A stretch of DNA of 21,281 nt from Candidatus Thorarchaeota archaeon (lineage in GTDB: Archaea > Asgardarchaeota > Heimdallarchaeia > Hodarchaeales > Hodarchaeaceae). The notes beneath the pieces were generated by a model. It was not told the origin of the DNA and did not search any database. It was given only the letters and a program-made list of their open reading frames with translations. The stretch covers positions 12,568 to 33,848 of the forward strand of contig JBHLRO010000031.1 in NCBI GenBank assembly GCA_048882505.1, given 5' to 3'. The number at the start of each line of letters is the position of its first letter. Within the stretch, counting starts at the first letter, position 1. This document shows, piece after piece, positions 1,700-21,080 of this stretch. Made by a program: the position numbers and the translations under genes.

Positions 1700-1727
1700 T
1701 TTTAACCTACCCACCGTTATACGACAT
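1700..1727. other. 28-bp dif/Xer-like site 1
   Basis: TTTTAACCTAC-CCACCG-TTATACGACAT. Minus strand ATGTCGTATAA-CGGTGG-GTAGGTTAAAA versus E. coli dif GGTGCGCATAA-TGTATA-TTATGTTAAAT: 6/11 and 8/11 arm identity. Confidence 0.6.
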
Positions 1728-1891
1728 CAGATAATTTGAAGTTATATAAGAAGAAGATGAATCTGGGAAAAACTCCCTCCTAACACAAGAGCTCGCAGAA
1801 TTTTAGATCTTTTCATAATACCTTTTCATTTTCTATTCAGACAGCCTAGGAAGAACTCCTGAGCTTTCTCATGTGAGATCTTAGAGACTAA

Positions 1892-3229
1892 TTAAATCCG
1901 TGAAGTTTCTCCTTCCCCTTCATCAGGCTTTTTTTCCCTAAAATACAGACTAAGATAGATACATGTAGCCCCAATGAAACTTAGAAACAGTGGAACGATA
2001 ATTCCTTCATTTAGTCCATATTGTTCGATTAAACTTCCAGCAATTGGAAGAGTGGGGATTCCAATAATCGAAGTAAGGGTAGGAATCAATGAGTAAACTG
2101 AATTTCGAAAATCAGATGGAACTAAGTCCACCATGGTTCTTCCTCTCAATGTTTCTGCAATATCATAGATACAATTAACACCAATGGTCAATAGAAGGGC
2201 CGTTAAGATCGCTCCAGGAAAATTTGGCTCATTAGCAGGAGGAATGATAGCTAATAAAATAACAAAGGGAAGATAATATGTGAAAGTAATTAGAAAGTCA
2301 AATAGAGGCAACTTACTGTTCGGAAATTTCTGACTTACTTTTGCCATGTAGATTCCAATTGGAATTCCAACAAAGAACATAATTGTCCTGAATAAGGATG
2401 CTAATCCATCAGTCCCTGTATAGCCGAAATATATAGGGAAGAGAATCAACGAACCCCAAACATTTAGAGCTGCATAAATTATGGACATTCCCATCAAAAA
2501 GAAGAAAGCAGACTTACTAGATACTAGAAATTTGAGTCCTCCGACGAGGAATGTAAAGAAGTTCTCTGATGACGGTTCTGTATATAGAGTATCCTCCTTA
2601 AACTCTATAGCATCAGACTTAATATCCTGGACGAGAAAAATTATGAAGAATATTAGAAACGCTGATAATATTGCTTGAATGAAAAAAACTAGCTCCCGTG
2701 AGAATGAAGTTGCGATAAATCCACCAATTGTGAAGGTAAAGGCCATGGTGATTCTAACTAAACTACCAATACGTGCATTAAAAAAACCATAGATCTTTCG
2801 ATCAGGATCTTGGTCTCCAACTACGCTCTTATAGTTATTGTCAAGCCAAGTACCTAAAGTTCCTGATGCCTGCGCATTGGCCACTCCTGTAAAAAAGGCA
2901 TAGACGAAAAAGTCGGTAAATGTTGTTGAAAAAGATAACAACCAATATGAGATGGCATAACATGAAAAAGCAATTGACAAAACCCACCGTTGACCAATAT
3001 AATCACCGAGAGATCCACTAGGGTAATCAATAAGCAGCTGAATGAGAAGCGTAAAAGAAATAATTATACTTGCTTGTGTTGGTCCGATTTTATCGTAAGT
3101 GTAAAGAACAAAAAATGTACTCGATAAATTTCCTATTATTGATATAATTAAAATTACAACAAGAAATTTCATTATTAAATTACGTGCATTAGGAATCGCT
3201 TCTATCCCTAAAAACCGTGGAAGAAACAA
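1892..3229 (-). CDS. MFS transporter
   Basis: About 12 hydrophobic segments and MFS motif A-like PSGSLGDYIGQR. The ORF track starts at TTG 3289; TTG 3229 follows an AGGTGA SD-like motif and is preferred. Confidence 0.88.
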   Translation of the reverse strand: MFLPRFLGIEAIPNARNLIMKFLVVILIISIIGNLSSTFFVLYTYDKIGPTQASIIISFTLLIQLLIDYPSGSLGDYIGQRWVLSIAFSCYAISYWLLSFSTTFTDFFVYAFFTGVANAQASGTLGTWLDNNYKSVVGDQDPDRKIYGFFNARIGSLVRITMAFTFTIGGFIATSFSRELVFFIQAILSAFLIFFIIFLVQDIKSDAIEFKEDTLYTEPSSENFFTFLVGGLKFLVSSKSAFFFLMGMSIIYAALNVWGSLILFPIYFGYTGTDGLASLFRTIMFFVGIPIGIYMAKVSQKFPNSKLPLFDFLITFTYYLPFVILLAIIPPANEPNFPGAILTALLLTIGVNCIYDIAETLRGRTMVDLVPSDFRNSVYSLIPTLTSIIGIPTLPIAGSLIEQYGLNEGIIVPLFLSFIGATCIYLSLYFREKKPDEGEGETSRI

Positions 3230-3431
3230 ATCATCACCTTTACATAAACAGTCACGCCCGAAAAGGACGAGAGCTTTAAAATATTTCAAAAAAGGCAGTC
3301 ATTCACGCTTTTGCAGGAGAAGACTATGAGTTAGCTGTTGTCCCTCCTAAAACAAGAGCCTCCTTCTCTCGGTTTGACGCACGCTCTCAGCATTATGTGT
3401 TCATAATCCTGAGTATCATTATACGTATTTT

Positions 3432-3459
3432 TGGCAATATATCCAACGTTAAGCGACAT
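3432..3459. other. 28-bp dif/Xer-like site 2
   Basis: TGGCAATATAT-CCAACG-TTAAGCGACAT: same spacer as sites 4, 6 and 7, and the right arm matches the family. Confidence 0.55.
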
Positions 3460-3584
3460 CTCCTTCATGGAGAAAAAACAACTGACTAATGATGGATGAT
3501 GGATAAATGTATTAAAATGATGAAATAGCTAATGGAACAATAGTCTATTGCTCAGTGGTTGAGACAAATAGGAACGTATCGAAC

Positions 3585-4607
3585 ATGAAGGTCTTGGGAT
3601 ACGCAGCAAAAGCGATAGGACAGCCACTGGAACCCTTCACCTACGAGCAACCAAAAACAGATGCACATGATATCCTGGTGTCGGTGACGCACTGCGGTTT
3701 GTGTTATACTGACATCCACGCTATCGACGACTACTACGGAATAACCACCTTTCCCTTTGTCCCTGGTCATGAGATTGTTGGATATGTGTCGGCTGTGGGC
3801 CGTGCAGTATCTAACCTCAAAGAAGGGGATCGGGTCGGCATTGGCTGGCAGGGGCGTTCTTGTATGAAATGTGAGTGGTGCTTGCAGGGCGAAGAGCAGC
3901 TCTGTATGGACATCGTGTCGTCAGGAACATGGGTTCCCTATGGCGGATTCTCGTCCTCTATCTGTGTGGATAGCCGCTTTGCCTACCCGATTCCAGACGC
4001 CATGCCCTCCGAAGTGGCTGCAGTACTCATGTGCGCCGGGATCACGGTTTACTCCCCGCTCCGTTCTTACTCAGCTCATCAAGGGAAGAAAATTGGCATT
4101 ATCGGCGTGGGAGGGCTGGGTCACCTCGCATTACAGTTCGCACGCGCCCTCAATTACGAAGTAACCGCTATTTCCTCCTCTCCAGACAAGAAGGATCAAG
4201 CGCTAGCATTTGGCGCGGACCACTTCCTTGTTTCAGACGACCAGACCAGCATGCAACGAGCTGGGTTCGTCTTCGACCTGCTCTTATGCACCGCTCACGG
4301 CAAGATAAACTGGGAGGTCCTATTGAGTACTCTGAAGAAAAATGGGAGGCTGATCCTTACCGGCTTCCCAGACATGACATTCAATCCGACTGACCTCGTG
4401 GCACATCAATTATCGGTCACCGGGTCCTTCCTTGGCAATCGGGTAACCATGCGAGAGATGCTTTCGTTTGCACAGGAACACACCATCGTTCCCAAGGTAG
4501 AGCTAATGCCCATGACGAAGGTAAACGAAGCTATTCGAAAAGTTAAGGAGAACAAGGCACGCTACCGAATTGTTCTATATAACGACATCGGGGAAGTGGA
4601 ACTCTAA
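3585..4607 (+). CDS. Zn-dependent NAD(P) alcohol dehydrogenase (cinnamyl-alcohol dehydrogenase/YahK-Ahr-like)
   Basis: CGLCYTD and GHE catalytic-Zn motifs, CMKCEWC...C structural-Zn motif, GVGGLGH Rossmann motif, ARYRIVL C-terminus. ATG 3585 preferred over GTG 3555. Confidence 0.93.
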   Translation: MKVLGYAAKAIGQPLEPFTYEQPKTDAHDILVSVTHCGLCYTDIHAIDDYYGITTFPFVPGHEIVGYVSAVGRAVSNLKEGDRVGIGWQGRSCMKCEWCLQGEEQLCMDIVSSGTWVPYGGFSSSICVDSRFAYPIPDAMPSEVAAVLMCAGITVYSPLRSYSAHQGKKIGIIGVGGLGHLALQFARALNYEVTAISSSPDKKDQALAFGADHFLVSDDQTSMQRAGFVFDLLLCTAHGKINWEVLLSTLKKNGRLILTGFPDMTFNPTDLVAHQLSVTGSFLGNRVTMREMLSFAQEHTIVPKVELMPMTKVNEAIRKVKENKARYRIVLYNDIGEVEL

Positions 4608-4704
4608 ATTCTTAGAGTTCTTTGAAGACACTTTAGTCCTAAGCTATCTTTATCCAAGATATCAGATCTTAAGATCATCTCCAACCTATTTTTATTTTAT
4701 CGAA

Positions 4705-4760: not shown

Positions 4761-4764
4761 CTAT

Positions 4765-5127
4765 ATGGATCACTTGAAAAATCAACTGGATGAAGTATTT
4801 TCGGCATTATCTCATCCTGTTCGTAGAGCAATAATAGAACAAGTGGCTGTTAAGGAATGCACCGTAAACGAGTTAGCTAAGCCTCATAAAATTACCAGAC
4901 CTGCCATATCACAACATCTCCGGATCCTTTTAGATGCCAGCCTGATAGAACAGACAAAAAAAGGAAGATTTCGGATGTGTCATCTCAATGTAAGACCCCT
5001 TTCAGTTGCATTCAACTGGTTGGTCAGATATCGGGTTTTCTGGGAAACGTTACTTGATGAAATCCAAGAAAAGGTGGAAGCTGACGCCAATCTACAGGAA
5101 GACAATCAAAATGCAGGAAAAACCTAG
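4765..5127 (+). CDS. ArsR/SmtB family transcriptional regulator
   Basis: DEVFSALSHPVRRAII...TVNELA...ISQHLRILLDASLI...KGRFRMCHL is a classic ArsR winged HTH, coupled to an SRPBCC gene. ATG 4765 lies within ORF 4570..5127. Confidence 0.92.
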   Translation: MDHLKNQLDEVFSALSHPVRRAIIEQVAVKECTVNELAKPHKITRPAISQHLRILLDASLIEQTKKGRFRMCHLNVRPLSVAFNWLVRYRVFWETLLDEIQEKVEADANLQEDNQNAGKT

Positions 5128-5575: not shown

Positions 5576-5651
5576 ACTCAATCATCAACCTAACCTCTTT
5601 CTTTTCTCTTTAAATTGAAATATGAATTAAACAATAAAGGTGAGAAATACT

Positions 5652-6209
5652 ATGAAAAAGCTAATCATGTGGAATTTAATTACCCTCGATGGATATTTCC
5701 AAGGTAAGGAAGATTGGGACTTAAGTTTTCATGACCTAGTTTGGGGAAAAGAGTTAGAAGAGTTTTCAATTGAGCAGCTGAAATCCGCTGATATGATAAT
5801 ATTTGGCCTCACTACCTACCAAGGGATGGCAGCTCATTGGCAAGATGCCGAGGGAGAGGTGGCAGACTTCATGAATAAACTCCCAAAAGCCGTATGTTCG
5901 AGTACGCTAAAAACTGCTCGCTGGAATAACACAATTATCATAAAAAATGCAGCCGATGAAATCTCCAAATTGAAACAAGAAGGAAATGGAGACTTATTTG
6001 TATTTGGCAGTGGTAAACTTTGCGAAAGCCTGATGAAAGAAGACTTATTTGATGAATATAGACTTGTTATTACGCCAGTTTTTCTTGGGGAAGGAAGGCG
6101 GCTTTTTAACGAGGGATCAAAGTATCAAGAACTTAGACTCATTGAATCCAGACCGCTTTCTAATGGCGGTGTTATGTTGAGGTACGCCAATACGTTCGAA
6201 GGTAAATGA
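5652..6209 (+). CDS. Dihydrofolate reductase-like / RibD C-terminal domain protein
   Basis: MKKLIMWNLITLDGYF...IFGLTTY...GSGKL...LFDEYRLVITPVFLGEGRRLF. Confidence 0.92.
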   Translation: MKKLIMWNLITLDGYFQGKEDWDLSFHDLVWGKELEEFSIEQLKSADMIIFGLTTYQGMAAHWQDAEGEVADFMNKLPKAVCSSTLKTARWNNTIIIKNAADEISKLKQEGNGDLFVFGSGKLCESLMKEDLFDEYRLVITPVFLGEGRRLFNEGSKYQELRLIESRPLSNGGVMLRYANTFEGK

Positions 6210-6324: not shown

Positions 6325-6380
6325 AATCAGTATAACCGACGTTTCTTCAATACCGTTCTTTAACCTTGGTTTAACGACAA
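6325..6380. other. Two adjacent degenerate dif-like sites (site 3)
   Basis: AATCAGTATAA-CCGACG-TTTCTTCAATA (6325-6352) and CCGTTCTTTAA-CCTTGG-TTTAACGACAA (6353-6380); each matches only part of the consensus. Confidence 0.3.
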
Positions 6381-7286: not shown

Positions 7287-8666
7287 ATGGTTGATTTCGT
7301 TGGACTGATCCAAGGAGCACTAGAAAGCGCTATAATAACTTTACTAGATTATCTTTCTCTTCATGTGTTACTTTGTCTTGTTCCTGCTTTCTTCCTTGCA
7401 GGAGCTATGTCTTATTTTATTCCTAAAGACTTGATTACACGATATATGGGAAAGGATGCTGACTCGAAAATAGCCTATCCTATAGCAACAGCTGGTGGTT
7501 TTCTGTTAGCAGTCTGTAGCTGTACAGTTCTTCCGTTATTTGTGAGTATTTGGAAACGGGGAGCAGGATTGGGGCCAGCGATAACTTTCTTGTTTGTTGC
7601 ACCTGCAATTAACATTCTCGCACTGACCTATACAGGAACACTTGTAGGAATGGACATTGCAATAGCAAGAGGGATTTTGGCTATCATTTTTGCGATCCTC
7701 ATAGGGTTAATTATGGCAGCTGTTTTTGGAAAGAAAATAGATCAAGATGGCAATCACTCAAATAATCCCGCCAGTATGACTACGGATCCAGCAACGCAGG
7801 AGCCTAGTATAACCAATAATATGGAGGTTTCTAAATCAAACGTGCTCCTAATTATTGGACTAGGAATCGCTTCGATATTTTTAGCGACCCTAGATTCTAA
7901 TATAATTAGTTCTCTGGGTAATACTCTTTTCTCGGGCTGGACAATAATTTCTCCACTCCTTCAGAACCCTACTCTTCTTCAAACCATCATCTTTCTCATG
8001 GGGTTGCTGATTCTTATCATTCTAACCTTCAAAATTCCTAGTAAGGAATTAGTACTATTTCTCTGGTTAGTTTATGTATTAATGACTGGCACATCTCAAA
8101 TTACGTATTTTTCCGCGGACCTTAATCTCTTGAATGTTGTCATAAGTCCCGCTATAAGTAATATGGTGATTAAACTACTTTTGACAAGCCTAGTGGTTCT
8201 TGGATTACTTCTTTTCGTATGGAACCAGTTTGATACAGATGACATTCGTGCGTGGCTTTTCGAGACCTGGATTTTTGTGAAGTCCATTTTCCCATTAATC
8301 ATTACAGGTGTGGTCATCGCTGGCTTTGTGAAATTCTTTATTCCTCCTGAACTAGTAGTAACGCTGGTAGGACGTAATACTATCCTTGCAAATCTGATTG
8401 GAGTCCTATTTGGTGTGTTTATGTACTTTCCCACTTTGATGGAGGTACCCATTGCCCGGATATTTTTGGATCTTGGTATGGCTCGTGGACCATTGTTAGC
8501 ATATCTTTTAGCAGACCCAGAATTGTCTTTGCAGAGTATTCTTGTGACTCGGAAATATTTGGGGGATAGAAGAAATTCTTTTTACGTTATCTTGGTCGCA
8601 ATACTCACTTCTCTTGCTGGATTAATTTTTGGTCTGTTCTTAGGCCAAGGAATCGGTTTATGGTGA
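7287..8666 (+). CDS. Permease, ArsP/DUF318 family
   Basis: HVLLCLVPAFFLAGA, AVCSCTVLPLF, APAINI, YFPTLMEVPI, GPLLAYLLADPELSL motifs; many transmembrane segments. ATG 7287 preferred over 7251. Confidence 0.9.
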   Translation: MVDFVGLIQGALESAIITLLDYLSLHVLLCLVPAFFLAGAMSYFIPKDLITRYMGKDADSKIAYPIATAGGFLLAVCSCTVLPLFVSIWKRGAGLGPAITFLFVAPAINILALTYTGTLVGMDIAIARGILAIIFAILIGLIMAAVFGKKIDQDGNHSNNPASMTTDPATQEPSITNNMEVSKSNVLLIIGLGIASIFLATLDSNIISSLGNTLFSGWTIISPLLQNPTLLQTIIFLMGLLILIILTFKIPSKELVLFLWLVYVLMTGTSQITYFSADLNLLNVVISPAISNMVIKLLLTSLVVLGLLLFVWNQFDTDDIRAWLFETWIFVKSIFPLIITGVVIAGFVKFFIPPELVVTLVGRNTILANLIGVLFGVFMYFPTLMEVPIARIFLDLGMARGPLLAYLLADPELSLQSILVTRKYLGDRRNSFYVILVAILTSLAGLIFGLFLGQGIGLW

Positions 8667-9036: not shown

Positions 9037-9045
9037 ACCTATCAA

Positions 9046-9309: not shown

Positions 9310-9484
9310 TGTGAGATGATGCTGACCAATGAATAATGGGTCCTATTCATCATAGAGAACATGATTATAAATTGATTGAGAGATTTAATTTTTCAAAATC
9401 GAAGTTTCGAGACCAAGAAAGTTAAACATTGAACTTCATCGAGCGGATTCGTGACTGCTCTGTTTACGCGCAGCTCTTGGAATC

Positions 9485-9670
9485 GAAACCCTAATGAAAG
9501 AAGGCTTAGTCGATGAATATAGGCTTGTTATTACACCAGTTTTTCTTGGGAAAGGAAGGCGGCTTTTTAGCGAAGGATTGAAGTATCAAGAACTTGGGCT
9601 TCTTGAATCCCAGCCACTTTCTACTGGTGGCATCCTATTAAGGTACGCAAACACGTCTGTTGGCAAATAA
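9485..9670 (+). pseudogene. 3' fragment of a second DHFR-like gene (62 codons, no 5' part)
   Basis: ETLMKEGLVDEYRLVITPVFLGKGRRLFSEGLKYQELGLLESQPLSTGGILLRYANTSVGK* is colinear and gap-free with 6024-6209. Confidence 0.88.
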
Positions 9671-9727
9671 ACGAAAACTCTTCCCTAAGGAGCTCTGATG
9701 TTATTAATCGCTATGCGATCACACATG

Positions 9728-9773
9728 AGCAAAAAAAAGAAACAAAGTTCCTTCCCCGCCCAAAAAGAGAAAA
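9728..9773 (-). repeat. Partial repeat copy (trailer only)
   Basis: AAAAAGAAACAAAGTTCCTTCCCCGCCCAAAAAGAGAAAA matches 17939-17981 and 21112-21153. Confidence 0.8.
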
Positions 9774-10281
9774 TCAACGATATAGCAATAAGCTTCGGAT
9801 TCCCCGCCTGCTCAGATAATGCCAAGCTTTGCAGAAAATAGTCCAATGCCCTGTCTAGCGCACCTTTTCGCCAATAGATTAATCCCTTCACATTACAGAA
9901 TAGTGCCACCCTGTCTTTTCCGTTCTCCTTTTCAACCGCTGTGAACGCTTCTATCAGCTGTTCTCCTTCCCTGCTTGCTGCTAGTCCCTCATCCAGTCGT
10001 CCCAGCCGCGTTAGAGCATATAGTTCCGCTACCAGTAGAGAAAAAGTGGGTAGTTTTCCCACGGTGGTAGATAATTCTGTTCGGGCCTTTCTTGCCACCG
10101 TTAAGGCTTTATCGAATTGTCCTAAGGCTTCGAAAGCCCGACTCTTGTAATACTGATGTTCGATCTGCCTTTTCAAAGGTATATTATCTGGTTTAGCTTT
10201 TCCGGCCAGCTGTTCCAGTACTTCCTGGTACTTTCCTTTCTCAAAGAGCTCTTTCAAGTCTCTCTGTTTCATTGCTCTCAC
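9774..10281 (-). pseudogene. TPR-repeat protein, 3'-truncated and fused to the repeat trailer
   Basis: TPR helices (ALFCNVKGLIYWRKGALDRALDYFLQSLAL...IAISL). The frame breaks at about 9774 and continues into repeat sequence (IFSFWAGKELCFFF) to a stop at 9685. Confidence 0.82.
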
Positions 10282-10549
10282 AGCCAGTTTTTTTTATGGC
10301 TCTCATAAAAAGCTTCTACTATTGGTTGATTGCATTAAAACAATTTATTTTCAACCCCATATTCATTTGCTAAAGGATAAGGGGAACGGATTCTGTCAAA
10401 GTAGTAAACAGCTCTAAATGAGGTATTTTATGTAAGTTTTTACATATATTATATCTAGAATCCTACGATTTAATGCAGATAAATCTATAATTCTCCTATG
10501 AATAAATCTAATAAGGTATTATCACATTTTATTAATTGACGAAAAAGAT

Positions 10550-11041
10550 ATGATACCCAATAATCTTTATACGGAAGAAATTAAGTCAAGAACCACATTG
10601 TTTGGTTCGATTATATTCATATTAACTTCTCTTTTTATATTATGGTACCAATCCTTCATAGAATCATTCCATCATCCAATCCTAATTGGAATATCCATAA
10701 TTATTATCGTGATCTGTCTTGTCCTAATTAACTTTAGTAGAATGACTATTGGATTAACATCCCGAGAAATAACTATTAGATATGGAATATTTGGTCGCAC
10801 AGAGTCATGGCAGAATGTCAAAGCCGTTACTTACGATGAAACACCCATGATTGGATATCTAGGATGGGGAATTAGAATAATAAGATTTAGAGGAAAATGG
10901 AGACTAATTTTCAATGTAATGGGGGAAAAATGTGTTATACTCCATTTAAACCAAGGTAGATTTCGAGAATTTGTGTTTTCAACGAATTCTCCAGACGAGA
11001 TTATCAAGATAATTAGAGAAAAGACTCTTCAGAAAGTCTGA
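10550..11041 (+). CDS. Membrane protein with two N-terminal TM helices and a PH-like soluble domain
   Basis: Two hydrophobic helices, then ITIRYGIF...GWGIR...FSTNSPDEII; resembles DUF3093/bPH-type small membrane proteins. Confidence 0.7.
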   Translation: MIPNNLYTEEIKSRTTLFGSIIFILTSLFILWYQSFIESFHHPILIGISIIIIVICLVLINFSRMTIGLTSREITIRYGIFGRTESWQNVKAVTYDETPMIGYLGWGIRIIRFRGKWRLIFNVMGEKCVILHLNQGRFREFVFSTNSPDEIIKIIREKTLQKV

Positions 11042-11078
11042 TAAATCTCGGTCTTGTATATACCCCAGGATATACTTT

Positions 11079-11106
11079 TCTTAACCTAACCAACGTGTAC
11101 TCTAGT
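11079..11106. other. 28-bp dif/Xer-like site 4
   Basis: TCTTAACCTAA-CCAACG-TGTACTCTAGT. Minus-strand arm TTAGGTTAAGA is 8/11 identical to the XerD arm TTATGTTAAAT; lies between two convergent genes. Confidence 0.55.
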
Positions 11107-11134
11107 GTGTAATTAAAATCCATTAGTAATTCGT

Positions 11135-12151: not shown

Positions 12152-12532
12152 CGCTTGTATTTCCTAGATACTTAGAAATCAAGGCTCTGCTAACTGTTGT
12201 ATTCTTTTTGAGGTAAGCACAAAGCAAGCTATCAATAGATAGCGTTTGATGAACTCAACTATATTGTTCATTATTCTCGATTTTTATTCATGAAATGGAT
12301 TATTGGTAATTAGAGTCGATTTGATACAAGCTTACCTAATGGACATTTTTAAGGCTCTTCTTCTTGGCAGGAGTAGAAAAATGTAGGAAAACCAATGGCT
12401 TCTGGAAAATAATTCTTCTAAAAAAGACCGCTTATCCAAATAACAATTTTGCCATTATTTAACCAAGAGGAAATTCCATCAAAATAATCACAAACGATAG
12501 GTAGATGTCTTTATGCGCGTTTTTTATAACAG

Positions 12533-12560
12533 ATGAGCAATAACCAACGCTGAAGATATC
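12533..12560. other. Degenerate dif-like site
   Basis: ATGAGCAATAA-CCAACG-CTGAAGATATC: left arm and spacer close to site 6 (ACGTGCAATAA-CCAACG); right arm degenerate. Confidence 0.4.
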
Positions 12561-12689
12561 CAAGTAGCATATTTTCTGTAAAATCAATTACAGAATGGAT
12601 CTGTTTATGTCTATCTGGAATTATCTCCGTCCAATACAAGCTCGTAGTTCTACCTAATTAAGCAGATTGTAAGAATAGAAAAAAATGAA

Positions 12690-12845
12690 GATAAAAAACT
12701 TCTTCCCACCAAAAAAAAATTCGGAGTCTGGGCGTTACTTCGTGTACAGCTGTTCCACTTCAAGTTGTGACTTACCATGGATCGCCGCAATCCCCAAGAT
12801 GCTTCCCAAAGGTACCTTGAACAGATTCATGGCTCAATTACCTTA
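12690..12845 (-). repeat. Repeat copy A (gene 3' end plus trailer)
   Basis: Minus strand 12830-12735 encodes MNLFKVPLGSILGIAAIHGKSQLEVEQLYTK*, followed by the trailer. Confidence 0.88.
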
Positions 12846-12873
12846 GTCCCAACTCATTCCCGTTATGTTGGGA
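12846..12873. other. 28-bp dif-like, partly palindromic site 5
   Basis: GTCCCAACTCA-TTCCCG-TTATGTTGGGA, with TCCCAAC/GTTGGGA inverted arms and the family CG|TTA junction; sits at the end of copy A. Confidence 0.45.
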
Positions 12874-12970
12874 TACAAATATACTTTTATACTTGTAGAA
12901 TTCTGAATATAAACAAGGGAAAAAGCTCAAAATTACAACATTTACGCTAATGCTAGTTACGGTGAGATAA

Positions 12971-13234
12971 TTGACAACAGTGCGATTAAATAAAGATGAT
13001 GAGGATCTTTTAGAAAGGTTAAGAGCTCGTTATATTTTGATGGGCAAAAAAATGACAAAAAAGGAAATTTTAGGACAATTAATCAGACAAGAAGCAAAGA
13101 AATTTGAAGAAGAACTCAATAATCAGCATTTGCCCAAACTAGAGGAGGATATTGCCTGGAAATTACTCCAAACACCAACAAAATGGGGGATTAAAGATAC
13201 TTCTACAACTGTGGATGAATATCTCTATCAGTGA
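12971..13234 (+). CDS. Putative antitoxin (VapB-like)
   Basis: 87 aa, TTG start after GGTGA; MTTVRL N-terminus and acidic DTSTTVDEYLY C-terminus; directly upstream of a PIN gene. Confidence 0.78.
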   Translation: MTTVRLNKDDEDLLERLRARYILMGKKMTKKEILGQLIRQEAKKFEEELNNQHLPKLEEDIAWKLLQTPTKWGIKDTSTTVDEYLYQ

Positions 13235-13243
13235 GGTAATTCC

Positions 13244-13654
13244 ATGGTTGTGCTTTTAGATACTGGGTTTATTCTTGCTATACGAAATTCTGATGATGTT
13301 AATCATAATAAAGCAACCGAATTAATGAGAGAATGTTTATCAGAAAAATATGGCCGGATTATTGTTTCAAATTTCGTATTTGATGAGACCGTTACCTTAA
13401 CACTAGTGAGAACCCGTAATAAGAGCTTAGTTAGAGATATTGGCGACTTTATTTTTGATTCGCCGAGGATTACTTTACTGCATTTGAGCGAAACAGAATT
13501 TCTAGTTACTTGGGAATTCTTCCTTAAATACTTCGAAAAGGGGCTCTCATTTACGGACTGCTCGCTTCTAGTCATGGCGAAGCTCTTCGAGAGTAATGTT
13601 TACATTGCCACCTTTGATCGACATTTCAAGGGACTCCTTCCCGTACTTGGATAA
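13244..13654 (+). CDS. vapC: PIN-domain toxin (VapC family)
   Basis: VLLDTGFILA...FDETVTL...LSFTDCS...TFDRHF are the PIN acidic motifs. Confidence 0.93.
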   Translation: MVVLLDTGFILAIRNSDDVNHNKATELMRECLSEKYGRIIVSNFVFDETVTLTLVRTRNKSLVRDIGDFIFDSPRITLLHLSETEFLVTWEFFLKYFEKGLSFTDCSLLVMAKLFESNVYIATFDRHFKGLLPVLG

Positions 13655-13668
13655 TTCCTGTATAAGAG

Positions 13669-13696
13669 ACGTGCAATAACCAACGTTATACGACAC
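13669..13696. other. 28-bp dif/Xer-like site 6
   Basis: ACGTGCAATAA-CCAACG-TTATACGACAC has the canonical ATAA-N6-TTAT core; 15 bp after the vapC stop and about 42 bp before the trailer of copy B. Confidence 0.65.
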
Positions 13697-13721
13697 CTCA
13701 GTGTCATATCAGTAGAGAATA

Positions 13722-13838
13722 GGGAATAAGGAAAAAACTCCTTCCCCCCGCGAAAAAAAGGCTGGAGTCTGGGTGTTACTTCGTGTTCAGCTGTTCGACT
13801 TCAAGCTGTGACAAGACTAGAGTGCCGCAATCCTAAGA
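13722..13838 (-). repeat. Repeat copy B
   Basis: Minus strand reads IAAL, then a 1-nt deletion, then VLSQLEVEQLNTK* (stop 13776-13778), followed by the trailer GGGGGGAAGGAGTTTTTTCC. Confidence 0.88.
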
Positions 13839-13911
13839 GAACGACTCCTTTTTCGCTCCCCAAATGGCTATTACTTCCAGCAAATAACGTTTACTCTTGG
13901 TAAAAGCTCTC

Positions 13912-14379
13912 TTACCAATGAGAATGCTCAGGGGGTCTTAATTCTGGGAAGTTTGTGTCTCTAGCACGTATAAAGGAACGAAAATAAGAGGGTCTAACCC
14001 GAATCACGGCCCATGTCTTCCTTCTAGCCAAGAATTGCTCTTCTTCAAGCCAATAGTATTTCTTGATTCTCATTGCCTTTACTTTTTCTATAATTTCTTC
14101 GTCCTCAACATTTTCAGCTTCTCCTCTTATCATCACATATTGGTTCTTCCAATCATCCTTATAGACATGATGAACCAAGAGAGCCACATCTGGCTTCCTT
14201 TGAATGTTTCGGATCGTCAAGATGTTGGGTCTCGTCAAAATGTAGATTACACCCTCTTCTTCATGATACATGAAGTAAAATCCAGCAATATAGGGTTTAC
14301 CATTTACCCCAACAGTAGATATGATCAATGCGTCCTCGTCATGTAGAAATTTCTTGCTTGGTTCGTCTATTTCCACCAT
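13912..14379 (-). CDS. Pyridoxamine 5'-phosphate oxidase-like (split-barrel flavin/F420-binding) protein
   Basis: ISTVGVNGKP...IYILT...RNIQRKPDVALLV...VMIRGEAE...VIRVRP. Confidence 0.85.
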   Translation of the reverse strand: MVEIDEPSKKFLHDEDALIISTVGVNGKPYIAGFYFMYHEEEGVIYILTRPNILTIRNIQRKPDVALLVHHVYKDDWKNQYVMIRGEAENVEDEEIIEKVKAMRIKKYYWLEEEQFLARRKTWAVIRVRPSYFRSFIRARDTNFPELRPPEHSHW

Positions 14380-14646
14380 TGTAGTTATTTCCTTCTTTGT
14401 TTTCTTTCTTATATTTTTGCAACCATCGATAGTTAAAAGTTTTCCAATTTCATTTATGGATTCTTTTAGTAAATCTATTCTAGCAAAAACCCAGGATGGA
14501 GTAGATCTAGGATGAGTTTAAATTGATCTTCGTCCCCTTAATGAGGAGTTACAGTTAAAAACAACATATTGGTTAAGACTTTAGAAATGCGATATGTCAA
14601 TATTTAGCACCACATTACAATTGATCTTCACCCCCACCGCCCATTA

Positions 14647-14674
14647 TTTTGTCCTATATCTGGTTAGAGAGCTG
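14647..14674. other. Degenerate dif-like site before copy C
   Basis: TTTTGTCCTAT-ATCTGG-TTAGAGAGCTG: left arm 8/11 identical to site 1, at the expected ~45-bp spacing from the trailer. Confidence 0.3.
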
Positions 14675-14699
14675 TTGGAGTTTGCAAAGAGAAAAAGAT

Positions 14700-14808
14700 A
14701 TTGAAAAAAGAGGAAAAACCTCTCTTCCGTTTTAAACAAAATATTGAGTCTAGATGTCATTTTGTATAGCGCTGTTTGACTTCGGGCTGCGACAAGATAC
14801 AGAGTACT
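14700..14808 (-). repeat. Repeat copy C (diverged)
   Basis: Minus strand 14804-14757 encodes LCILSQPEVKQRYTK*, followed by a diverged trailer. Confidence 0.8.
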
Positions 14809-14916
14809 GATTGTAAAACTGATTTGATCAACTCTGTCTCGATATACATCCAAAACCAAGGAAGAAGGCCTGGAAAAATCCTTGGCAGCGATCTTTAATA
14901 ATATCAATTGGAAAAA

Positions 14917-15098
14917 TTACCTGGATGAACGAACCATTTTACGCGCTTCTATCAGGTGATCTTCCGCTCTTGCTTTTTGTAACCTTTTTTGTACCGTTGC
15001 GTTCTGCATCAATAACTCCTCTCATTTCACGAGTTCTTCTTCCAGTTGTTTCCTTTCTCAAAGAGCTCTTTCAAGTCTCTCTCTTTCATTGCTCTCAC
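14917..15098 (-). pseudogene. Internally deleted remnant of the TPR gene family
   Basis: 15049-15098 is 49/50 identical to 10232-10281 (MRAMKERDLKELFEKG). It is joined out of frame to 44 codons QLEEELVK*EELLMQNATVQKRLQKARAEDHLIEARKMVRSSR*. Confidence 0.75.
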
Positions 15099-15288: not shown

Positions 15289-15960
15289 ATGTTTAAAAAT
15301 ACTCGAATCCCGTACTTTTATCGTTTATCTTTATTGTTAGCTTCACTTACCACCTTTACTGTTCTTGAAATACTTGTTTTTATCGAATTTCAGAATGAAG
15401 TTACGGATCTTATTCAAAGATATCGTACTTGGTCGTATCAATCAAATTTACTTGTTTTAATTTGGCTTGCACTCGCTATTTACTATAATACGAATGAAAA
15501 TAAAAAGGATATTTTATTTGGACCATTAAAAGGTGCTATAACTTCATATATTACCGTTACGATTGTATTCTGGCATTTTGTTATTTCTCCGACCGCAGCT
15601 CCCGCAGAAGGAATTGTAATACTAGCAAATCTTATGATTCATTATTTCCTGCCAATTGCTTTTATTGTTGATTTTCTTCTATTTGATGTTCCCTCCTATG
15701 AATGGAAATCTATTCCGTCTTGGTTTATTTTTCCTTTAGTATGGACTGGTTTTGTCATGTTGACAGGTCTTACGGGATTTTTTAGAAACTCTTTGGGATT
15801 ACCGAATTATGTTTATCCATTCCTTAGTATTAATCGACATGGGGTAATCTCAGTAGGAACTTTCCTATTAATCGTATATATCGGTCTTTTATTAATGGCA
15901 GTAGCTTATGTTGGAATTTCTAAGATAAAAAATCGTTCCAAAATTCTGCAAGCAAATTAA
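15289..15960 (+). CDS. Pr6Pr / FAR-17a-AIG1-like membrane protein
   Basis: About 6 TM helices; SYQSN, HYFLP...DF and YVYPFL motifs. Confidence 0.72.
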   Translation: MFKNTRIPYFYRLSLLLASLTTFTVLEILVFIEFQNEVTDLIQRYRTWSYQSNLLVLIWLALAIYYNTNENKKDILFGPLKGAITSYITVTIVFWHFVISPTAAPAEGIVILANLMIHYFLPIAFIVDFLLFDVPSYEWKSIPSWFIFPLVWTGFVMLTGLTGFFRNSLGLPNYVYPFLSINRHGVISVGTFLLIVYIGLLLMAVAYVGISKIKNRSKILQAN

Positions 15961-16319: not shown

Positions 16320-16347
16320 TAACGTAATATCCAACGTTAACCGACTT
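16320..16347. other. 28-bp dif/Xer-like site 7
   Basis: TAACGTAATAT-CCAACG-TTAACCGACTT. Confidence 0.55.
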
Positions 16348-16402
16348 CGATGCGGTACTCACTCTACCATAAGAAGGAAAAAAGGAAACAAAGCTCCTTC
16401 AC
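16348..16402 (-). repeat. Partial repeat copy (site-proximal trailer)
   Basis: CGATGCGGTACTCACTCTACCATAAGAAGGAAAAAAGGAAACAAAGCTCCTTC is near-identical to 21081-21133. Confidence 0.9.
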
Positions 16403-16649
16403 CTTTTAAGAAAGCCAGAATTTAAAAAAGACGTCATTAAACATCCAACACTGGGAGGTGTTAAGGACACTTTCAGTGGAGGCAAGGTATCACAGATCTC
16501 TTATGAATGAACACCCCACGATCGTTCTATCTTCTTCCTTCCAAATATTAGCCTCTTAATACCTGGATCGCCACTGGTCATTAGTGGTTTCACAGGTAGA
16601 CCAAAGTGAAAACAAAAAAAACCTTTGGAATTTTCAAAAGAGAGAGACG

Positions 16650-17585
16650 TCATAAATTTTTATACCAGTCAAGGGTTTGATGAATCGCTTCCCGGTGAGG
16701 TGTGACAGTTTTACCAAACGCTTTTTCAAATTTAGAGTGATCAAGAATAAAAGGATCTTGAAATTGGTAAAGCGTTTCCTTCAACTCTCGAAGCGTGGGA
16801 TCAACTATTCCTAGTAAGGAAACGATTATATTTGGTGTAACGCTTATTTTGGGTTCAGCATTTGCTTCTTCAAACATCAATTCCAGAAATTGCCTTGTAG
16901 TCAGTGTTTCAGCACTCGGAATATGCCATACCTGTCCAAACGCTTCATTATGGTCTGCTAACGTTATGAGGCCTTTGGCAAAGTCTTCAATAAACATGTA
17001 TGTATGAGGAACGTCAAGATTACCCAAAACACTCACCTTCTGGCCTCTTAAGATGTTTGGAACCACGCGTTCTCCGATAGCGGCAAACAATACTCTGGGC
17101 CCGAAAAAATCAGAGGAACGACCAATAGTCGCCTCGATTTTACCATTGTTATGAGCCTCGATTAACATATCAGCAATCTGAGCTCGAGCTTTTCCTTTTC
17201 TCCCATGCGGATTATAAGGAAGATTTTCGGCGATAGGACCTTGGACACGGCCATAACAGTACAGATTATCACCAAAAACCAACCTAGCTCCAGTATTTAT
17301 TGCGAGATTAATCATACTTTCCATAATTAGAGGGTGCTTCTCTGGCCATTTAGTATAAGGGGGACTAACACAGTGATAGATCACTGTCGCCCCAGTAACA
17401 GCATTTTTTGAAGACTGAGGGTCAAATATGTCTGCTTTAGCCATCTCAACCTCTTCAGTACCCCTTATCTTCCCACTACGATTGACACCACGAACATTTC
17501 TGTCTTGTTTCCTTAGTTCACGAATAATCGCGGATCCAAGTGCTCCACTAGCACCAAATACCACATGAAGTTCATCTTTACTCAT
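16650..17585 (-). CDS. NAD-dependent epimerase/dehydratase (atypical SDR)
   Basis: VVFGASGALG Rossmann motif, DNLYCYG, KGKARA, GRSSDFFGP. Confidence 0.92.
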   Translation of the reverse strand: MSKDELHVVFGASGALGSAIIRELRKQDRNVRGVNRSGKIRGTEEVEMAKADIFDPQSSKNAVTGATVIYHCVSPPYTKWPEKHPLIMESMINLAINTGARLVFGDNLYCYGRVQGPIAENLPYNPHGRKGKARAQIADMLIEAHNNGKIEATIGRSSDFFGPRVLFAAIGERVVPNILRGQKVSVLGNLDVPHTYMFIEDFAKGLITLADHNEAFGQVWHIPSAETLTTRQFLELMFEEANAEPKISVTPNIIVSLLGIVDPTLRELKETLYQFQDPFILDHSKFEKAFGKTVTPHREAIHQTLDWYKNL

Positions 17586-17876: not shown

Positions 17877-17904
17877 CTATTAAAACAATTCCATTATACA
17901 ATTT
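17877..17904. other. Degenerate dif-like site before copy D
   Basis: CTATTAAAACA-ATTCCA-TTATACAATTT: left arm 8/11 to site 9, right arm 7/11 to site 1, about 48 bp from the trailer. Confidence 0.3.
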
Positions 17905-17929
17905 CATACTATTTTGTCCTAAATCAGAA

Positions 17930-18098
17930 AGAATGAGAAAAAGGAAACAAAGCTCCTTCCCCGCCTCAAACAGAGACAAGATGCTGGAGGGTACTTCCGC
18001 GTTAGAGCTGTTCCACTTCAGGCTGTGACAAGATGTAGAGCGCCGCGATCCCCAAGATGGTTTCAAAGAGTACGTTAAACAGATTCAGGGCCCCAAAC
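17930..18098 (-). repeat. Repeat copy D
   Basis: Minus strand 18097-18002 encodes FGALNLFNVLFETILGIAALYILSQPEVEQL*. It begins immediately after the vapC stop codon at 18099. Confidence 0.92.
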
Positions 18099-18521
18099 TT
18101 ATTTCATGATTCGATTGAAACTAAAATTGTCGAAATGCTTATCAAAACTATAAATTTCCTTGACTTTTAAGCGATCCATCAAGATTTTCGCCAATGAATC
18201 ATTAATCCCAACTTTGTACCTTTGGGCCAGCACTGCCGCCCCTTGATAGTCGCTATGGGTCACATCAAGAACTCTAATCGTTTCCTTTGCTAGTAAATCA
18301 TAGATGAATTGGGCCGCTTCGGAAAAACTCTTCCGAGTTTCCAGAACACTCGCCACTTCTGACAAATGAACAACACTCGTCACTACTTCTTCTCCCTTAT
18401 CCACTCGGGTAATAATTTCCCTCGCTTCCGATTTCATTTTCCGAAGATGCTCGGGAAGCTCTTGGATGGGCTCCAGAACTGCGTATAAGAACGTCGAAGC
18501 ATCAATAAACCGCAAATTCAC
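18099..18521 (-). CDS. vapC: PIN-domain toxin (VapC family)
   Basis: FIDASTFLYA...HLSEV...GINDSLA...IYSFDKHFD; 4-nt overlap with the antitoxin gene. Confidence 0.93.
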   Translation of the reverse strand: MNLRFIDASTFLYAVLEPIQELPEHLRKMKSEAREIITRVDKGEEVVTSVVHLSEVASVLETRKSFSEAAQFIYDLLAKETIRVLDVTHSDYQGAAVLAQRYKVGINDSLAKILMDRLKVKEIYSFDKHFDNFSFNRIMK

Positions 18522-18757
18522 ACCTTCCCTCCACTTAGCAAGTACTCCTTTAACCTATGGTAATCCGAGTAGATATCGGGAGGTATCTCTACCTTAAGAA
18601 ATTCAAAATACTTTTGTAAATTGGGATCGTCTTTTGGAATAACCAACAACAGATCTCCATCTTCAACCAGAAAAACCTCGTTCGATTGAACCTTTTTCCG
18701 CCATTCTGGAGGTAATACCACTCGTCCTTGGGAATCGATCCTTTTCAACTCAATCAT
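18518..18757 (-). CDS. AbrB/MazE/SpoVT-type antitoxin (VapB)
   Basis: KRIDSQGRVVLPPEWRKK...VEDGDLLLVIP is the swapped-hairpin signature. Confidence 0.9.
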   Translation of the reverse strand: MIELKRIDSQGRVVLPPEWRKKVQSNEVFLVEDGDLLLVIPKDDPNLQKYFEFLKVEIPPDIYSDYHRLKEYLLSGGKV

Positions 18758-18762
18758 TATAA

Positions 18763-18846
18763 TCCCATATTTTGCTGGTTTTTCCCACTTTTAAAGATCC
18801 CTCCCCAGAAATGATTCATGCCTCCCATTACTTTCGAAAACTCCCA
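18763..18846. promoter_or_regulatory. Phased TCCCA/TGGGA array, putative antitoxin operator
   Basis: TCCCA or TCCCCA at 18763, 18783, 18802, 18823 and 18842 (19-21 bp period), directly upstream of the antitoxin ATG. Confidence 0.6.
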
Positions 18847-19114
18847 ATTTCACCCCAAATCCGAATAATAAGGAGTAAAAAAAGAGTCTATCTATTCCTA
18901 GTAGTCCTTTTCGCTTCTAGTTATCTTCTTACCGGAGCAATTAAAAGCGAGTCAGCTTAACGGTGTACTAGTAGCGTAGCCAATATTAAAAGGATTCAGT
19001 TCATAAGGTGAGTCGATATATCGATAGGGACAAATTCTTCCTCTCTTTCCTCTTTCATGTTTCGGAATAATAAGAGAGGAGAGAGTATTCATTTGGCAGC
19101 ACCTATACTAGAGT

Positions 19115-19546
19115 TCAGAAAGTAAAAACATAATAACGTACTACCCCCTCCCATCCTCCATGTATCTCTCTAATAACATTTGAAATAGTAGGTGATAAAA
19201 TACGATTGCAATGGTTTCTCCATGCTTTTGGTATTCCTTTTATTGACCCTGGATGATACAAGTCTTTATCGAGAGTAAAAACAGATCGTTTCAGTCCTAA
19301 CCTATGAACTAATTGTATTTCCTCATCCAAAAACTTGCTGCTTGACGGATCTGTTCCAACAAATAGAATAGAAACTTTACATTGCTCCATCAAACTTTTT
19401 AGGGTTGGTAATCCTGTGGTTTCGGAAGTTGTTTCATCATAATAAACCACTTTATATATTCCATTTTTATGTCGGTTAATATAGTCAATTAGATGGGAAA
19501 TTCGGTCTTGAGCGACATTCTTTCTTATCAGATATATTTTCCTCAT
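19115..19546 (-). CDS. Putative TIR-like domain protein (MTH538/DUF1863, ThsB-like)
   Basis: MRKIYLI...CKVSILFVGTDPSSSKFLDEEIQLV...SVFTL follows the remembered pattern (S)VTIVLIG..T..SKWV..EI of MTH538-type TIRs. ATG 19546 preferred over TTG 19564. Confidence 0.5.
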   Translation of the reverse strand: MRKIYLIRKNVAQDRISHLIDYINRHKNGIYKVVYYDETTSETTGLPTLKSLMEQCKVSILFVGTDPSSSKFLDEEIQLVHRLGLKRSVFTLDKDLYHPGSIKGIPKAWRNHCNRILSPTISNVIREIHGGWEGVVRYYVFTF

Positions 19547-19885
19547 TGTTACTCCATTTTCCAAGTTTTAAATAACACCAAAGGTGTATGATTACAAGGT
19601 TTCGGTTTTAGATAGGCTCCCACATTAATAAAACTATTGAACACAGAACGATCATTATATTTTACATGAGTATCAAGAGTTTGCAAATGTAAGCTAATCA
19701 GCTAGAAAATCTCTCTTCCAGTTTTTTCTTAGTAAATCCGCACTTCACGTATGTTATTTATGAACTTTGGATTCTACTGACAACGAAAGTCAACATTGCG
19801 TAACAACTGGAAATAACCAAGGATCCGCTTTGTTTGAACCAAAATTTCAATTTTATATCGTCCAATCTTAAGTACTCAATATGGA

Positions 19886-19913
19886 TATTTCGATGACCAT
19901 GGTTAGCCGAATT
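19886..19913. other. Degenerate dif-like site before copy E
   Basis: TATTTCGATGA-CCATGG-TTAGCCGAATT: right arm 9/11 identical to site 7. Confidence 0.4.
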
Positions 19914-19924
19914 TAGCAAAGAAA

Positions 19925-20053
19925 GCGAAGAAGAAAAAGGAAAACACTCCTTCCCCCTCAAAAAAAGGTTAAGTCTGGGTATTACTTCGTGTAAAGTTGC
20001 TCGACTTCAGGTTGTGACAAGACGTAGAGCGCTGCAATCCCCAAGATGGTTCC
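19925..20053 (-). repeat. Repeat copy E
   Basis: Minus strand 20053-19982 encodes an intact GTILGIAALYVLSQPEVEQLYTK*, followed by the trailer. Confidence 0.92.
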
Positions 20054-20059
20054 ATAGCT

Positions 20060-20087
20060 AGTGTTGGATCCCTCCGTTAGATGACAC
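20060..20087. other. 28-bp dif-like site 8
   Basis: AGTGTTGGATC-CCTCCG-TTAGATGACAC: right arm 8/11 to site 6; lies 7 bp beyond the end of copy E. Confidence 0.45.
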
Positions 20088-20164
20088 TGCCAAAGCTTAA
20101 ATACTAGAATATTCTATCACCTGGTATTTGCTCATCCTGGGGTGAGTCATTTTGACCTTTTCCT

Positions 20165-20281
20165 CGAGGAAGACAAAGCTCCTAGTTCTTTTATCAATCC
20201 TGGTGATTAGTTCAGCTTTCCTGGGAAATTTTGCCAGTTTATCTAATAGAATAGACTGCAATCCCAACAATGGTTCGTATT
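20165..20281 (-). repeat. Repeat copy G (strongly degenerate)
   Basis: Colinear shards GGAAGACAAAGCTCCT, CTGGTGATTAGTTCAGCTTTCC and CTGCAATCCCAACAATGGTTC in the same order as in copy F. Confidence 0.6.
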
Positions 20282-20285
20282 TAAC

Positions 20286-21059
20286 ATGAGTATTGAATTG
20301 GACCTGTATTACACGTTTTTACTAATAATGGTGATGATTGCAGTAGCGGTTTTCTTTAGTCTATTTTTTATACCAGCTGGGTATGGCCAATTAATCAGTA
20401 AACGATGGGGAACAGTTACCATTAATAACAGGCCGGGTTGGGTAATTATGGAACTCCCTGTTGTACTTTTTATGTCACTATTTTGGCTGGTTTCTGAGCG
20501 AACCCTTGAACCAACTCCCTTCGTCCTTTTCATTTTGTTTAATATTCACTATTGTCAAAGGACGTTTATTTTTCCATTATTGATACGAGGAGAAAATCAA
20601 ATGCCTTGGTCCATTATCATTCTTGGAATGGTCTTCAATTCTGCAAACGCCTTTATGCAGGGAATTTGGATCTTCTTCTTATCGCCTCCTACTCTTTATA
20701 ATCCACAATGGCTCTCAACGCCTCAATTTATAATTGGTACAACAATGTTTATGATTGGTTTCTTTATCAATATTCATTCAGATCATACTATCAGAAATTT
20801 ACGTGAACCTGGAGATACTGCCTTCCACATTCCAAATGGGGGTCTATTTAAGTATGTTACATCTGCAAACTACTTTGGGGAGTTCACGGAATGGGTTGGG
20901 TGGATGATTTTGACCTTGTCTTGGCCAGGGTTTGTATTTGCATTATGGACATTCGCAAATCTAGGCCCAAGGGCCCACAGCCTGAGAAATTGGTATAGGA
21001 AAACGTTTGGTGAGGAATTTCCGATGAATAGAAAACGCATGATTCCATTCATCTATTAA
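20286..21059 (+). CDS. 3-oxo-5-alpha-steroid 4-dehydrogenase (steroid 5-alpha-reductase/DET2/SRD5A) family protein
   Basis: GWVIMELP, HYCQRTFIFP, NIHSDHTIRNLR.PG...IPNGGLFKYV..ANYFGE..EW, NLGPRA, RKRMIPFIY. Confidence 0.92.
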   Translation: MSIELDLYYTFLLIMVMIAVAVFFSLFFIPAGYGQLISKRWGTVTINNRPGWVIMELPVVLFMSLFWLVSERTLEPTPFVLFILFNIHYCQRTFIFPLLIRGENQMPWSIIILGMVFNSANAFMQGIWIFFLSPPTLYNPQWLSTPQFIIGTTMFMIGFFINIHSDHTIRNLREPGDTAFHIPNGGLFKYVTSANYFGEFTEWVGWMILTLSWPGFVFALWTFANLGPRAHSLRNWYRKTFGEEFPMNRKRMIPFIY

Positions 21060-21080
21060 ATATTCAACGTTAAACGACTT
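21053..21080. other. 28-bp dif/Xer-like site 9
   Basis: CTATTAAATAT-TCAACG-TTAAACGACTT; the left arm contains the TAA stop of the reductase gene. Confidence 0.55.

Follow-up and report, generated by a model that had tools for sequence, protein, structure and literature searches.

What are the short, co-oriented motifs that recur between the genes of an Asgard archaeal contig, and could the gene modules that they separate have been joined at them? Asgard archaea are close relatives of eukaryotes; their genomes are large and hold many acquired genes, and their uptake mechanisms are poorly known. The locus examined here is a stretch of 21,281 nucleotides (the window) from the metagenome-assembled genome (MAG) of a Candidatus Thorarchaeota archaeon (GCA_048882505.1, here G000; 4.32 Mb, 94.5% complete), where it occupies positions 12568 to 33848 of the 33.8-kb contig JBHLRO010000031.1 (C31). 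A preliminary description had interpreted the motifs as a family of 28-bp dif-like recombination sites in which one arm is better conserved than the other and the crossover spacer is conserved. We put the probability at about 70% that the motif serves as the core of a site for conservative, site-specific recombination of the tyrosine-recombinase (Xer/dif-like) type. A precise insertion/deletion (indel), the reassortment of flanking sequences, and a dyad-symmetric 11-6-11 architecture support that core interpretation.

Distribution and architecture of the motif

Site coordinates refer to the window unless another contig is named, and site architecture is read on the minus strand. The six copies rated best in the preliminary description (1700, 3432, 11079, 13669, 16320, and 21053) are all present at those positions and on one strand. 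A comparison with shuffled sequence, which it had suggested, revealed a clear excess: the 15-mer CCAACGTTAWRCGAC occurred 8 times with up to three mismatches, against 0.81 expected, and 0 of 100 shuffles reached 8, while CCAACGTT occurred 3 times against 0.36 expected. Across the whole genome, with at most one mismatch, six copies of CCAACGTTAWRCGAC were found in the 33.8 kb of C31 and two in the remaining 4.28 Mb; the sixth strong copy is located upstream of the window (C31:9045). The motif is real and nonrandom.

Some details of the preliminary description stood only in part. Five copies do share the exact plus-strand spacer CCAACG, but only four of these belong to the best six (3432, 11079, 13669, and 16320), the fifth being 12533, which had been ranked as weak; the spacers of the remaining two best copies are CCACCG (1700) and TCAACG (21053). 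Every strong site is intergenic, as proposed, but the weak copy at 20060 lies within the coding-derived part of one of the repeat units described below and was rejected as a site. Among the other weak copies, 12533 proved to be a genuine site of a second type, and 14647, 17877, and 19886 are eroded copies, as they occupy the expected site position inside decayed repeat units; 12846 was rejected as the remnant of a DHFR-like gene end.

Beyond the window, the 16-mer TGTCGNWTAACGTTGG (at most one mismatch) was recovered from 21 of the 22 genomes of the genus, a group of Heimdall/Hodarchaeota-type Asgard archaea, at 1 to 12 copies each, compared to 0 to 2 for a reversed-pattern control. Elsewhere in the class, 6 of 61 genomes returned a single match with one mismatch, which is the control level. 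A scan of IMG/VR gave four matches to the strong half-site, not above a rough chance estimate, and none to the alternative half-site introduced below, while a metagenome scan for complete sites recovered four contigs, which carry no recombinase information.

On the minus strand, the strong arm of 11 bp, ATGTCGTWTAA, is followed by the 6-bp overlap CGTTGG and then by a second arm. The second arm is either weak, retaining only WTA, or an alternative strong arm, TTATTGCACAT, which is an 8/11 inverted repeat of the first and was overlooked in the preliminary description. We collected 93 unique sites across the genus and computed a conservation profile on 80 of them, in which approximately 17 nt (strong arm plus overlap) and 3 nt of the other arm are conserved. 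Arm and overlap positions also served to select the sites; at the remaining positions, conservation stands out only for A at −11 and for WTA at +6 to +8. A second conserved half-site, CGTTGG-TTATTGCACAT-CTRYTATATA, is preceded by left arms that vary greatly and is repeated many times in a genome (1 to 15 matches with at most three mismatches in each of 21 of the 22 genomes).

Sites with two strong arms were found at window position 13669 and at loci L018 and L136, and a near-perfect palindrome, ATGTCGTTAAA-CGTTGG-TTATACGACAT, occurs at L113:9115 (genome G007). All four arm combinations (strong/strong, strong/weak, weak/strong, and weak/weak) are represented, which is the pattern expected from reciprocal exchange within the center. 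Like Xer/dif sites, the motif has two imperfect inverted arms of approximately 11 bp around a 6-bp center, with TAA/TTA as the inner bases. This agrees with the published archaeal dif, in which two 11-bp inverted repeats flank a 6-bp center and XerA acts independently of FtsK (PMC2958812, PMC5357621). Judged from its sequence, then, the motif appears to be a tyrosine-recombinase-type core with dyad-symmetric arms, its polarity set by the asymmetric center. Strong sites are co-oriented within each locus examined (six loci in five genomes), so that any two of them could cut out the intervening DNA as a circle.

Two further features of the arms were observed. The alternative strong arm is always followed by the TATA-box-like sequence CTRYTATATA (more than 20 loci), which may supply a promoter or an accessory-factor site. 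At some loci, two or three strong-arm sites stand in tandem 46 to 52 nt apart (L056, G002:C160:114590-115257; L034:10383-10445; L032:14740-14800), separated by a conserved ACGTATATTGATACGTA-type spacer, and these may be accessory or arm-type binding arrays.

Displaced gene ends and probable exchange at the overlap

Most sites in the window close a unit of approximately 200 bp that the preliminary description had also missed. Each unit comprises codons from the tail of a gene, a T-rich hairpin, 15 to 35 variable bases, and ATGTCGTWTAA-CGTTGG. The gene-tail part holds the last 13 to 38 codons in the window and up to approximately 57 in relatives, ending in ...ILGIAALYVLSQPEVEQLYTK-stop. Its source is a gene for a membrane protein of approximately 190 amino acids with a zinc ribbon (CxxC...CxxC) and membrane helices, found at full length in three relatives; we refer to it as the anchor gene. 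The exchange junction lies 70 to 100 nt downstream of the anchor gene's stop codon, in a separate conserved core. In G000, units occur on C31 only, and a possible origin as right-end remnants of IS200/IS605 elements was dropped because of this confinement to a single contig. Rfam and tRNA scans of the window returned no match.

At its end, the contig holds the last 38 codons of an anchor-gene copy that is 95% identical to the gene of a sister species. This copy (unit G) is probably the end of an intact anchor gene, and a loose end in a metagenome run from a different study (X5) runs on from it into the anchor gene. The N-terminal 152 codons were not found in the G000 assembly. A 45%-identical paralogue (G000:C1:359483-359977) has no recombination site downstream.

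We compared the window with a sister genome (G016) and with contigs from metagenome runs, among them X5 and X3, another sample from the source study; such contigs can show the presence of a joint only. Contigs from both X3 and X5 join window position 11096 to 13701 with 13 bases, 13687 to 13699, between them. The sister genome has an equal join on its contig C99, where bases 7459 to 7468 match both 11087 to 11096 and 13677 to 13686 of the window. The ends of the polymorphism share the 10 bases TAACCAACGT, and the extra DNA in the window amounts to 2,590 bp (11097 to 13686). The joins in the sister genome and the metagenomes identify this segment, which carries a VapBC pair and a CAAX-protease gene, as an indel bounded exactly by the overlap. 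The empty form, strong arm-CGTTGG followed by the TTAGGTTAA flank, is present in at least six other genomes, and because it is so widespread we read the state in the window as an insertion, not a deletion. The insertion made the complete site at 13669 and a weak/weak hybrid at 11079. Only one end of the insert carries a strong arm, and the insert lacks both a terminal inverted repeat and a transposase. No joints at sites were seen in the contigs of two further runs (X1 and X2), which likewise show presence only.

Flanking sequences across the genus point in the same direction as this polymorphism. Both flanks are shared by 3 of 4,278 site pairs, the left flank alone by 30, and the right flank alone by 46, and flank similarity mostly stops at +5/+6 or −11/−12 relative to the overlap. 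Left and right flanks reassort independently across the 93 sites. At most loci of the genus, the motif is present without a repeat unit and next to many unrelated left flanks. Modules that the window has in common with the sister genome (90 to 94% identity) are not arranged in the same sequence there: after the anchor gene, the steroid-reductase module comes first in the window but follows the pyridoxamine-5'-phosphate-oxidase-like (PNPOx-like) module in G016.

These observations may be drawn together in a model in which strands would be exchanged at the 6-bp overlap CGTTGG, with a tyrosine recombinase as the presumed agent. Recombination of a strong-overlap-weak site with a weak-overlap-strong site would insert or excise a circular gene module, and repeated events would have built up a co-oriented cassette array that extends for at least 25 kb from the anchor gene in the downstream direction. 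Many cassettes bear a copy of the anchor gene's 3' end and hairpin ahead of the strong arm, and the approximately 200-bp units could also recombine homologously, giving rise to extra shuffling.

Candidate recombinase and competing explanations

G000 has one PF00589 protein (C5:210883-212124), which scores 255.5 bits on the NCBIfam archaeal XerA model (cutoff, 220 bits) but 145 bits on the integron-integrase model (cutoff, 265 bits). XerA is likewise the only PF00589 protein in G016, which is recently rearranged relative to G000, and serine recombinases were detected neither in G000 nor in the complete genome G009. As the only site-specific recombinase detected in G000, XerA is the best candidate for the enzyme that would act at the sites, as we infer from gene content. 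The G000 protein is unusually long (approximately 390 amino acids versus the usual approximately 293); residues ~108 to 190 form a degenerate tandem copy of the next ~80 residues, without the first catalytic Arg motif, and the G016 gene has the same long open frame. Extra Xer-like recombinases are sporadic in the genus. On contig C56 of G007, five sites stand in one orientation, and an operon of a ribbon-helix-helix (RHH) protein and a Xer-like recombinase begins 83 nt beyond the last one; another Xer-like recombinase lies 3 kb from two sites in G009. Among 11 such loci, scanned over up to approximately 6 kb and over less at contig ends, 4 have a candidate site, one of them doubtful and inside the recombinase gene.

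Several observations weigh against site-specific exchange by a Xer-like enzyme. No recombinase gene lies in or beside the array in G000, and another recombinase may be missing from the 94.5%-complete assembly or be supplied in trans. The association of Xer-like recombinases with sites is not conserved, since a G012 orthologue 70% identical to the G007 enzyme has no site nearby. The second arm is weak at most sites, the exact empty/occupied comparison comprises one pair, and the predicted circle junction of the 2,590-bp segment was not found in the metagenome contigs scanned. In addition, one unit in G016 is chimeric, with its crossover inside the gene-tail part and not at the overlap, and strain-specific joints at 9486 to 9490 (9486 to 14911 and 9490 to 10966) occur where there is no site. 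Part of the shuffling is not site-specific.

How far might other explanations account for the same facts? A narrower version of the tyrosine-recombinase reading, which we think rather unlikely, holds that the site after the anchor gene is the chromosome's own dif, at which XerA resolves dimers, and that the array consists of accreted integrase-less elements resembling integrative mobile elements exploiting Xer (IMEX). Its 11-6-11 form with inner TAA/TTA, its location behind the same gene, conserved across several species, and the presence of XerA as the sole recombinase found in G000 and G016, next to cassettes without integrases, would suit a dif; moreover, a scan of G000, including the surroundings of xerA, found no other dyad-symmetric TAA-N6-TTA candidate that stands out. 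A chromosomal dif would not be expected to be multicopy, however, and the motif occupies several loci per genome (by the strong-arm and alternative half-site counts above), while several intact anchor-gene copies (L028 and L029) are not followed by a site. With four Cdc6 paralogues in each complete genome, Cdc6 position does not define the terminus; in G009, the distance between the array and the best Cdc6 gene is 0.36 Mb. We consider it unlikely that site-specific recombination played no part at all, such that the units are dispersed repeats shuffled by homology or microhomology and the 17-mer serves another purpose, for instance protein binding or termination, and travelled with the displaced gene end. 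The chimeric G016 unit with its breakpoint in the coding-derived part, the joints at 9486 to 9490, and the ragged left ends of the units (13 to 57 codons across the genus) could be read in this way, although ragged ends also fit secondary homologous exchange or decay, and the shared 10-bp repeat could support a slippage deletion. This explanation does not predict a motif that is free of the unit at most loci among many unrelated left flanks, flank similarity that ends at the motif edges, dyad-symmetric arms around an asymmetric 6-bp center, or sites co-oriented within a locus, and the ancestral empty form at the polymorphic locus calls for insertion rather than deletion.

The three other explanations have less to recommend them. 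Placement of the arrays downstream of one gene might mean that the sites are transposon ends or target duplications, left by a site-specific element (Tn7-like or of another kind) that inserts downstream of a conserved gene; the arms can be read as 11-bp imperfect inverted terminal repeats beside a 6-bp direct repeat, the two or three tandem strong arms ~50 nt apart at some loci are reminiscent of transposase-binding arrays, and Tn7-family elements have been reported in Asgard archaea (bioRxiv 10.1101/2025.07.27.667033). No rve transposase (PF00665, TnsB-type) was found in G000, G016, or G009, however, most cassettes have a single strong arm, and the structure of the 2,590-bp insert does not fit, which makes a transposon quite improbable. 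Very improbable, too, is a role in gene regulation, with the motif as the operator or a promoter-proximal element in a regulon. A TATA-like box does stand 10 to 15 nt after the site in many right flanks, and the alternative half-site extends into CTRYTATATA, but neighboring genes face either way (on the right, 13 leave the site and 20 arrive; on the left, 20 leave and 17 arrive), three of the six window sites directly adjoin the 3' end of a gene that converges on them, and the precise indel at the overlap would be left unexplained. Scarcely credible, finally, is a classical integron cassette array lacking its integrase, that is, a cluster of attC sites lacking integron integrases (CALIN), with the units as attC. 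The preliminary description had seen such a link in the CG/TT junction, which matches the integron G/TT rule; some copies read RYYYAAC|GTTRRRY, the array is co-oriented with small accessory and toxin-antitoxin cassettes, and CALINs have been reported to be enriched in Asgard MAGs (PMC9668308). The link did not survive folding of four units as single strands on both strands (z, −1.6 to +0.8), in which no long end-to-end R''/R' hairpin formed. The R''-like and R'-like boxes abut instead of standing 50 to 130 nt apart, the genome has no IntI, its only PF00589 protein being XerA, and cargo genes lie in both orientations.

Layout of the array and known systems

The features of the window are listed below from the anchor gene outward. 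Cargo genes occur in both orientations, and the cassettes carry no integrase.

Features of the cassette array in the window, in order of decreasing position
Feature	Position	Strand	Description
Site closing unit G	21053-21080	−	Overlap CGTTGA between a strong and a weak arm; the plus-strand steroid-reductase gene has its stop codon inside the weak arm
Unit G	21081-21281	−	38 anchor-gene codons (stop 21165-21167) and T-rich hairpin; reaches contig end
Cargo module 1	20286-21059	+	3-oxo-5-alpha-steroid 4-dehydrogenase-like gene; other array position in G016
Unit J	20173-20276	−	Short degenerate fragment of repeat unit
Unit F	19886-20085	−	Gene-tail fragment, hairpin, eroded site 19886-19913
Cargo module 2	18099-19564	−	149-aa gene and VapB (AbrB/MazE-like)/VapC (PIN) pair
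Unit E	17877-18096	−	31-codon gene-tail fragment, hairpin, eroded site 17877-17904
Cargo module 3	16650-17585	−	NAD-dependent epimerase/dehydratase gene
Unit D	16320-16414	−	Hairpin part only, with intact site 16320-16347
Cargo module 4	15289-15960	+	Multi-pass membrane protein, no family match
Unit C	14647-14800	−	13-codon tail fragment, hairpin, eroded site; absent from G016 and X3/X5 contigs
Cargo module 5	13912-14379	−	PNPOx-like gene
Unit B	13669-13847	−	Only complete two-strong-arm site of the window, 13669-13696: GTGTCGTATAA-CGTTGG-TTATTGCACGT
2590-bp segment	11097-13686	−	CAAX-protease gene, site 12533, unit A, second VapBC pair; direct repeat TAACCAACGT at bounds
Unit A	12669-12846	−	Gene-tail fragment and hairpin, no strong-arm site
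Second-type site	12533-12560	−	Unrelated arm, CGTTGG, alternative strong arm TTATTGCTCAT, conserved extension CTGTTATA
Hybrid junction site	11079-11106	−	Unrelated arm ACTAGAGTACA, CGTTGG, flank seen after canonical sites in at least 6 other genomes
Unit H	9718-9773	−	Hairpin remnant fused to truncated TPR gene
Variant candidate	6353-6380	−	Strong-arm-like TTGTCGTTAAA, overlap CCAAGG (CCTTGG on plus strand); starts a 286-bp repeat shared with C31:9256-9541
Site	3432-3459	−	Exact overlap with a strong arm; flanked by divergent MFS and alcohol-dehydrogenase genes
Site	1700-1780	−	Site 1700-1727, overlap CGGTGG, hairpin remnant 1759-1780

Other repeats in the window concern features besides the sites. 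The last ~62 codons of a RibD_C/DHFR-like gene recur at 6023 to 6207 and 9484 to 9668 (81% identity), downstream of an ArsR/ArsP module, as a second displaced gene end in the locus. A 50-nt duplicate (98% identity) lies at 10232 to 10281 and 15049 to 15098, at the 5' end of the truncated TPR gene, and an X5 contig joins 15051 to 9785. Several strain-specific joints are marked by an element of ~40 nt (...CTGTTTACGCGCAGCTCTTGGAATCGA; window 9440 to 9490, L130:1080-1112 and 4850-4885), which occurs twice in G016:C99 and is a second type of recombination hot spot, without a Xer-like site. At the far end of the window, positions 3 to 1247 of the minus strand form an open frame with five repeats of ~156 nt (52 amino acids) and no Pfam match, and positions 1 to 77 are 100% identical to C31:12391-12467, just upstream, which could reflect repeat collapse at the assembly k-mer length.

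What might such a locus mean for its hosts? The data describe a genus-wide cassette system with a site of another kind, a short Xer-type core, in which one insertion has been caught exactly at the overlap. It is possible, and we suggest it only tentatively, that Hodarchaeota-type Asgard archaea possess an integron-like gene-capture platform that uses the housekeeping XerA and double-strand dif-like sites, with one strong arm per cassette. If so, these close relatives of eukaryotes would have a built-in, integrase-free route to acquire and reshuffle foreign genes. If XerA is the enzyme, a universal housekeeping recombinase would double as an archaeal gene-capture engine, and the concepts of Xer-exploiting elements and pdif modules would reach beyond bacteria. 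Since the site is short and well defined, the idea is directly testable in vitro.

Among known systems, integrons share with the array co-oriented sites, any two of which can excise a circle, between small, promoter-poor accessory modules that include toxin-antitoxin pairs, as well as a module order that varies between close relatives. The array differs in that its sites are short double-strand 11-6-11 cores rather than folded single-strand attC hairpins, its cargo lies in both orientations, it is anchored at the 3' flank of a host gene, with a copy of the gene end at many sites, and there is no IntI. The archaeal integrons published to date are based on attC models (PMC9668308), and most of them are arrays that lack an integrase. 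The pdif modules of Acinetobacter plasmids are likewise accessory or toxin-antitoxin modules between 28-bp Xer-type sites with one good and one poor arm, without a dedicated integrase and with the host Xer system as the presumed enzyme (PMC6449649, PMC11705084). However, pdif sites alternate in orientation and belong to bacterial plasmids and XerC/XerD, whereas the array sites are co-oriented and chromosomal, with a single XerA.

IMEX that integrate at dif (CTX, TLC, and VGJ in Vibrio, GGI in Neisseria, and LME-1 in Legionella; PMC5357621, PMC9765430) are also integrase-less, stand in tandem at a Xer-type site, and leave hybrid sites with one good and one degenerate arm. In the array, one insertion is bounded exactly by the central region. 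Unlike these phages and large islands, the array modules are gene cassettes of 1 to 3 kb, and their target is only a candidate dif. Integrative elements at the 3' ends of genes or tRNAs resemble the array in that displaced copies of the target's 3' end mark successive junctions, but the array junction lies 70 to 100 nt past the stop codon in a separate core, and the modules lack an integrase. The literature searched contained no archaeal IMEX and no archaeal cassette array on Xer sites, in a limited search that is not proof of novelty. A co-oriented gene-cassette array on Xer-type double-strand sites is the description that suits the locus best; it has features of integrons, pdif modules, and IMEX and matches none of them in full.

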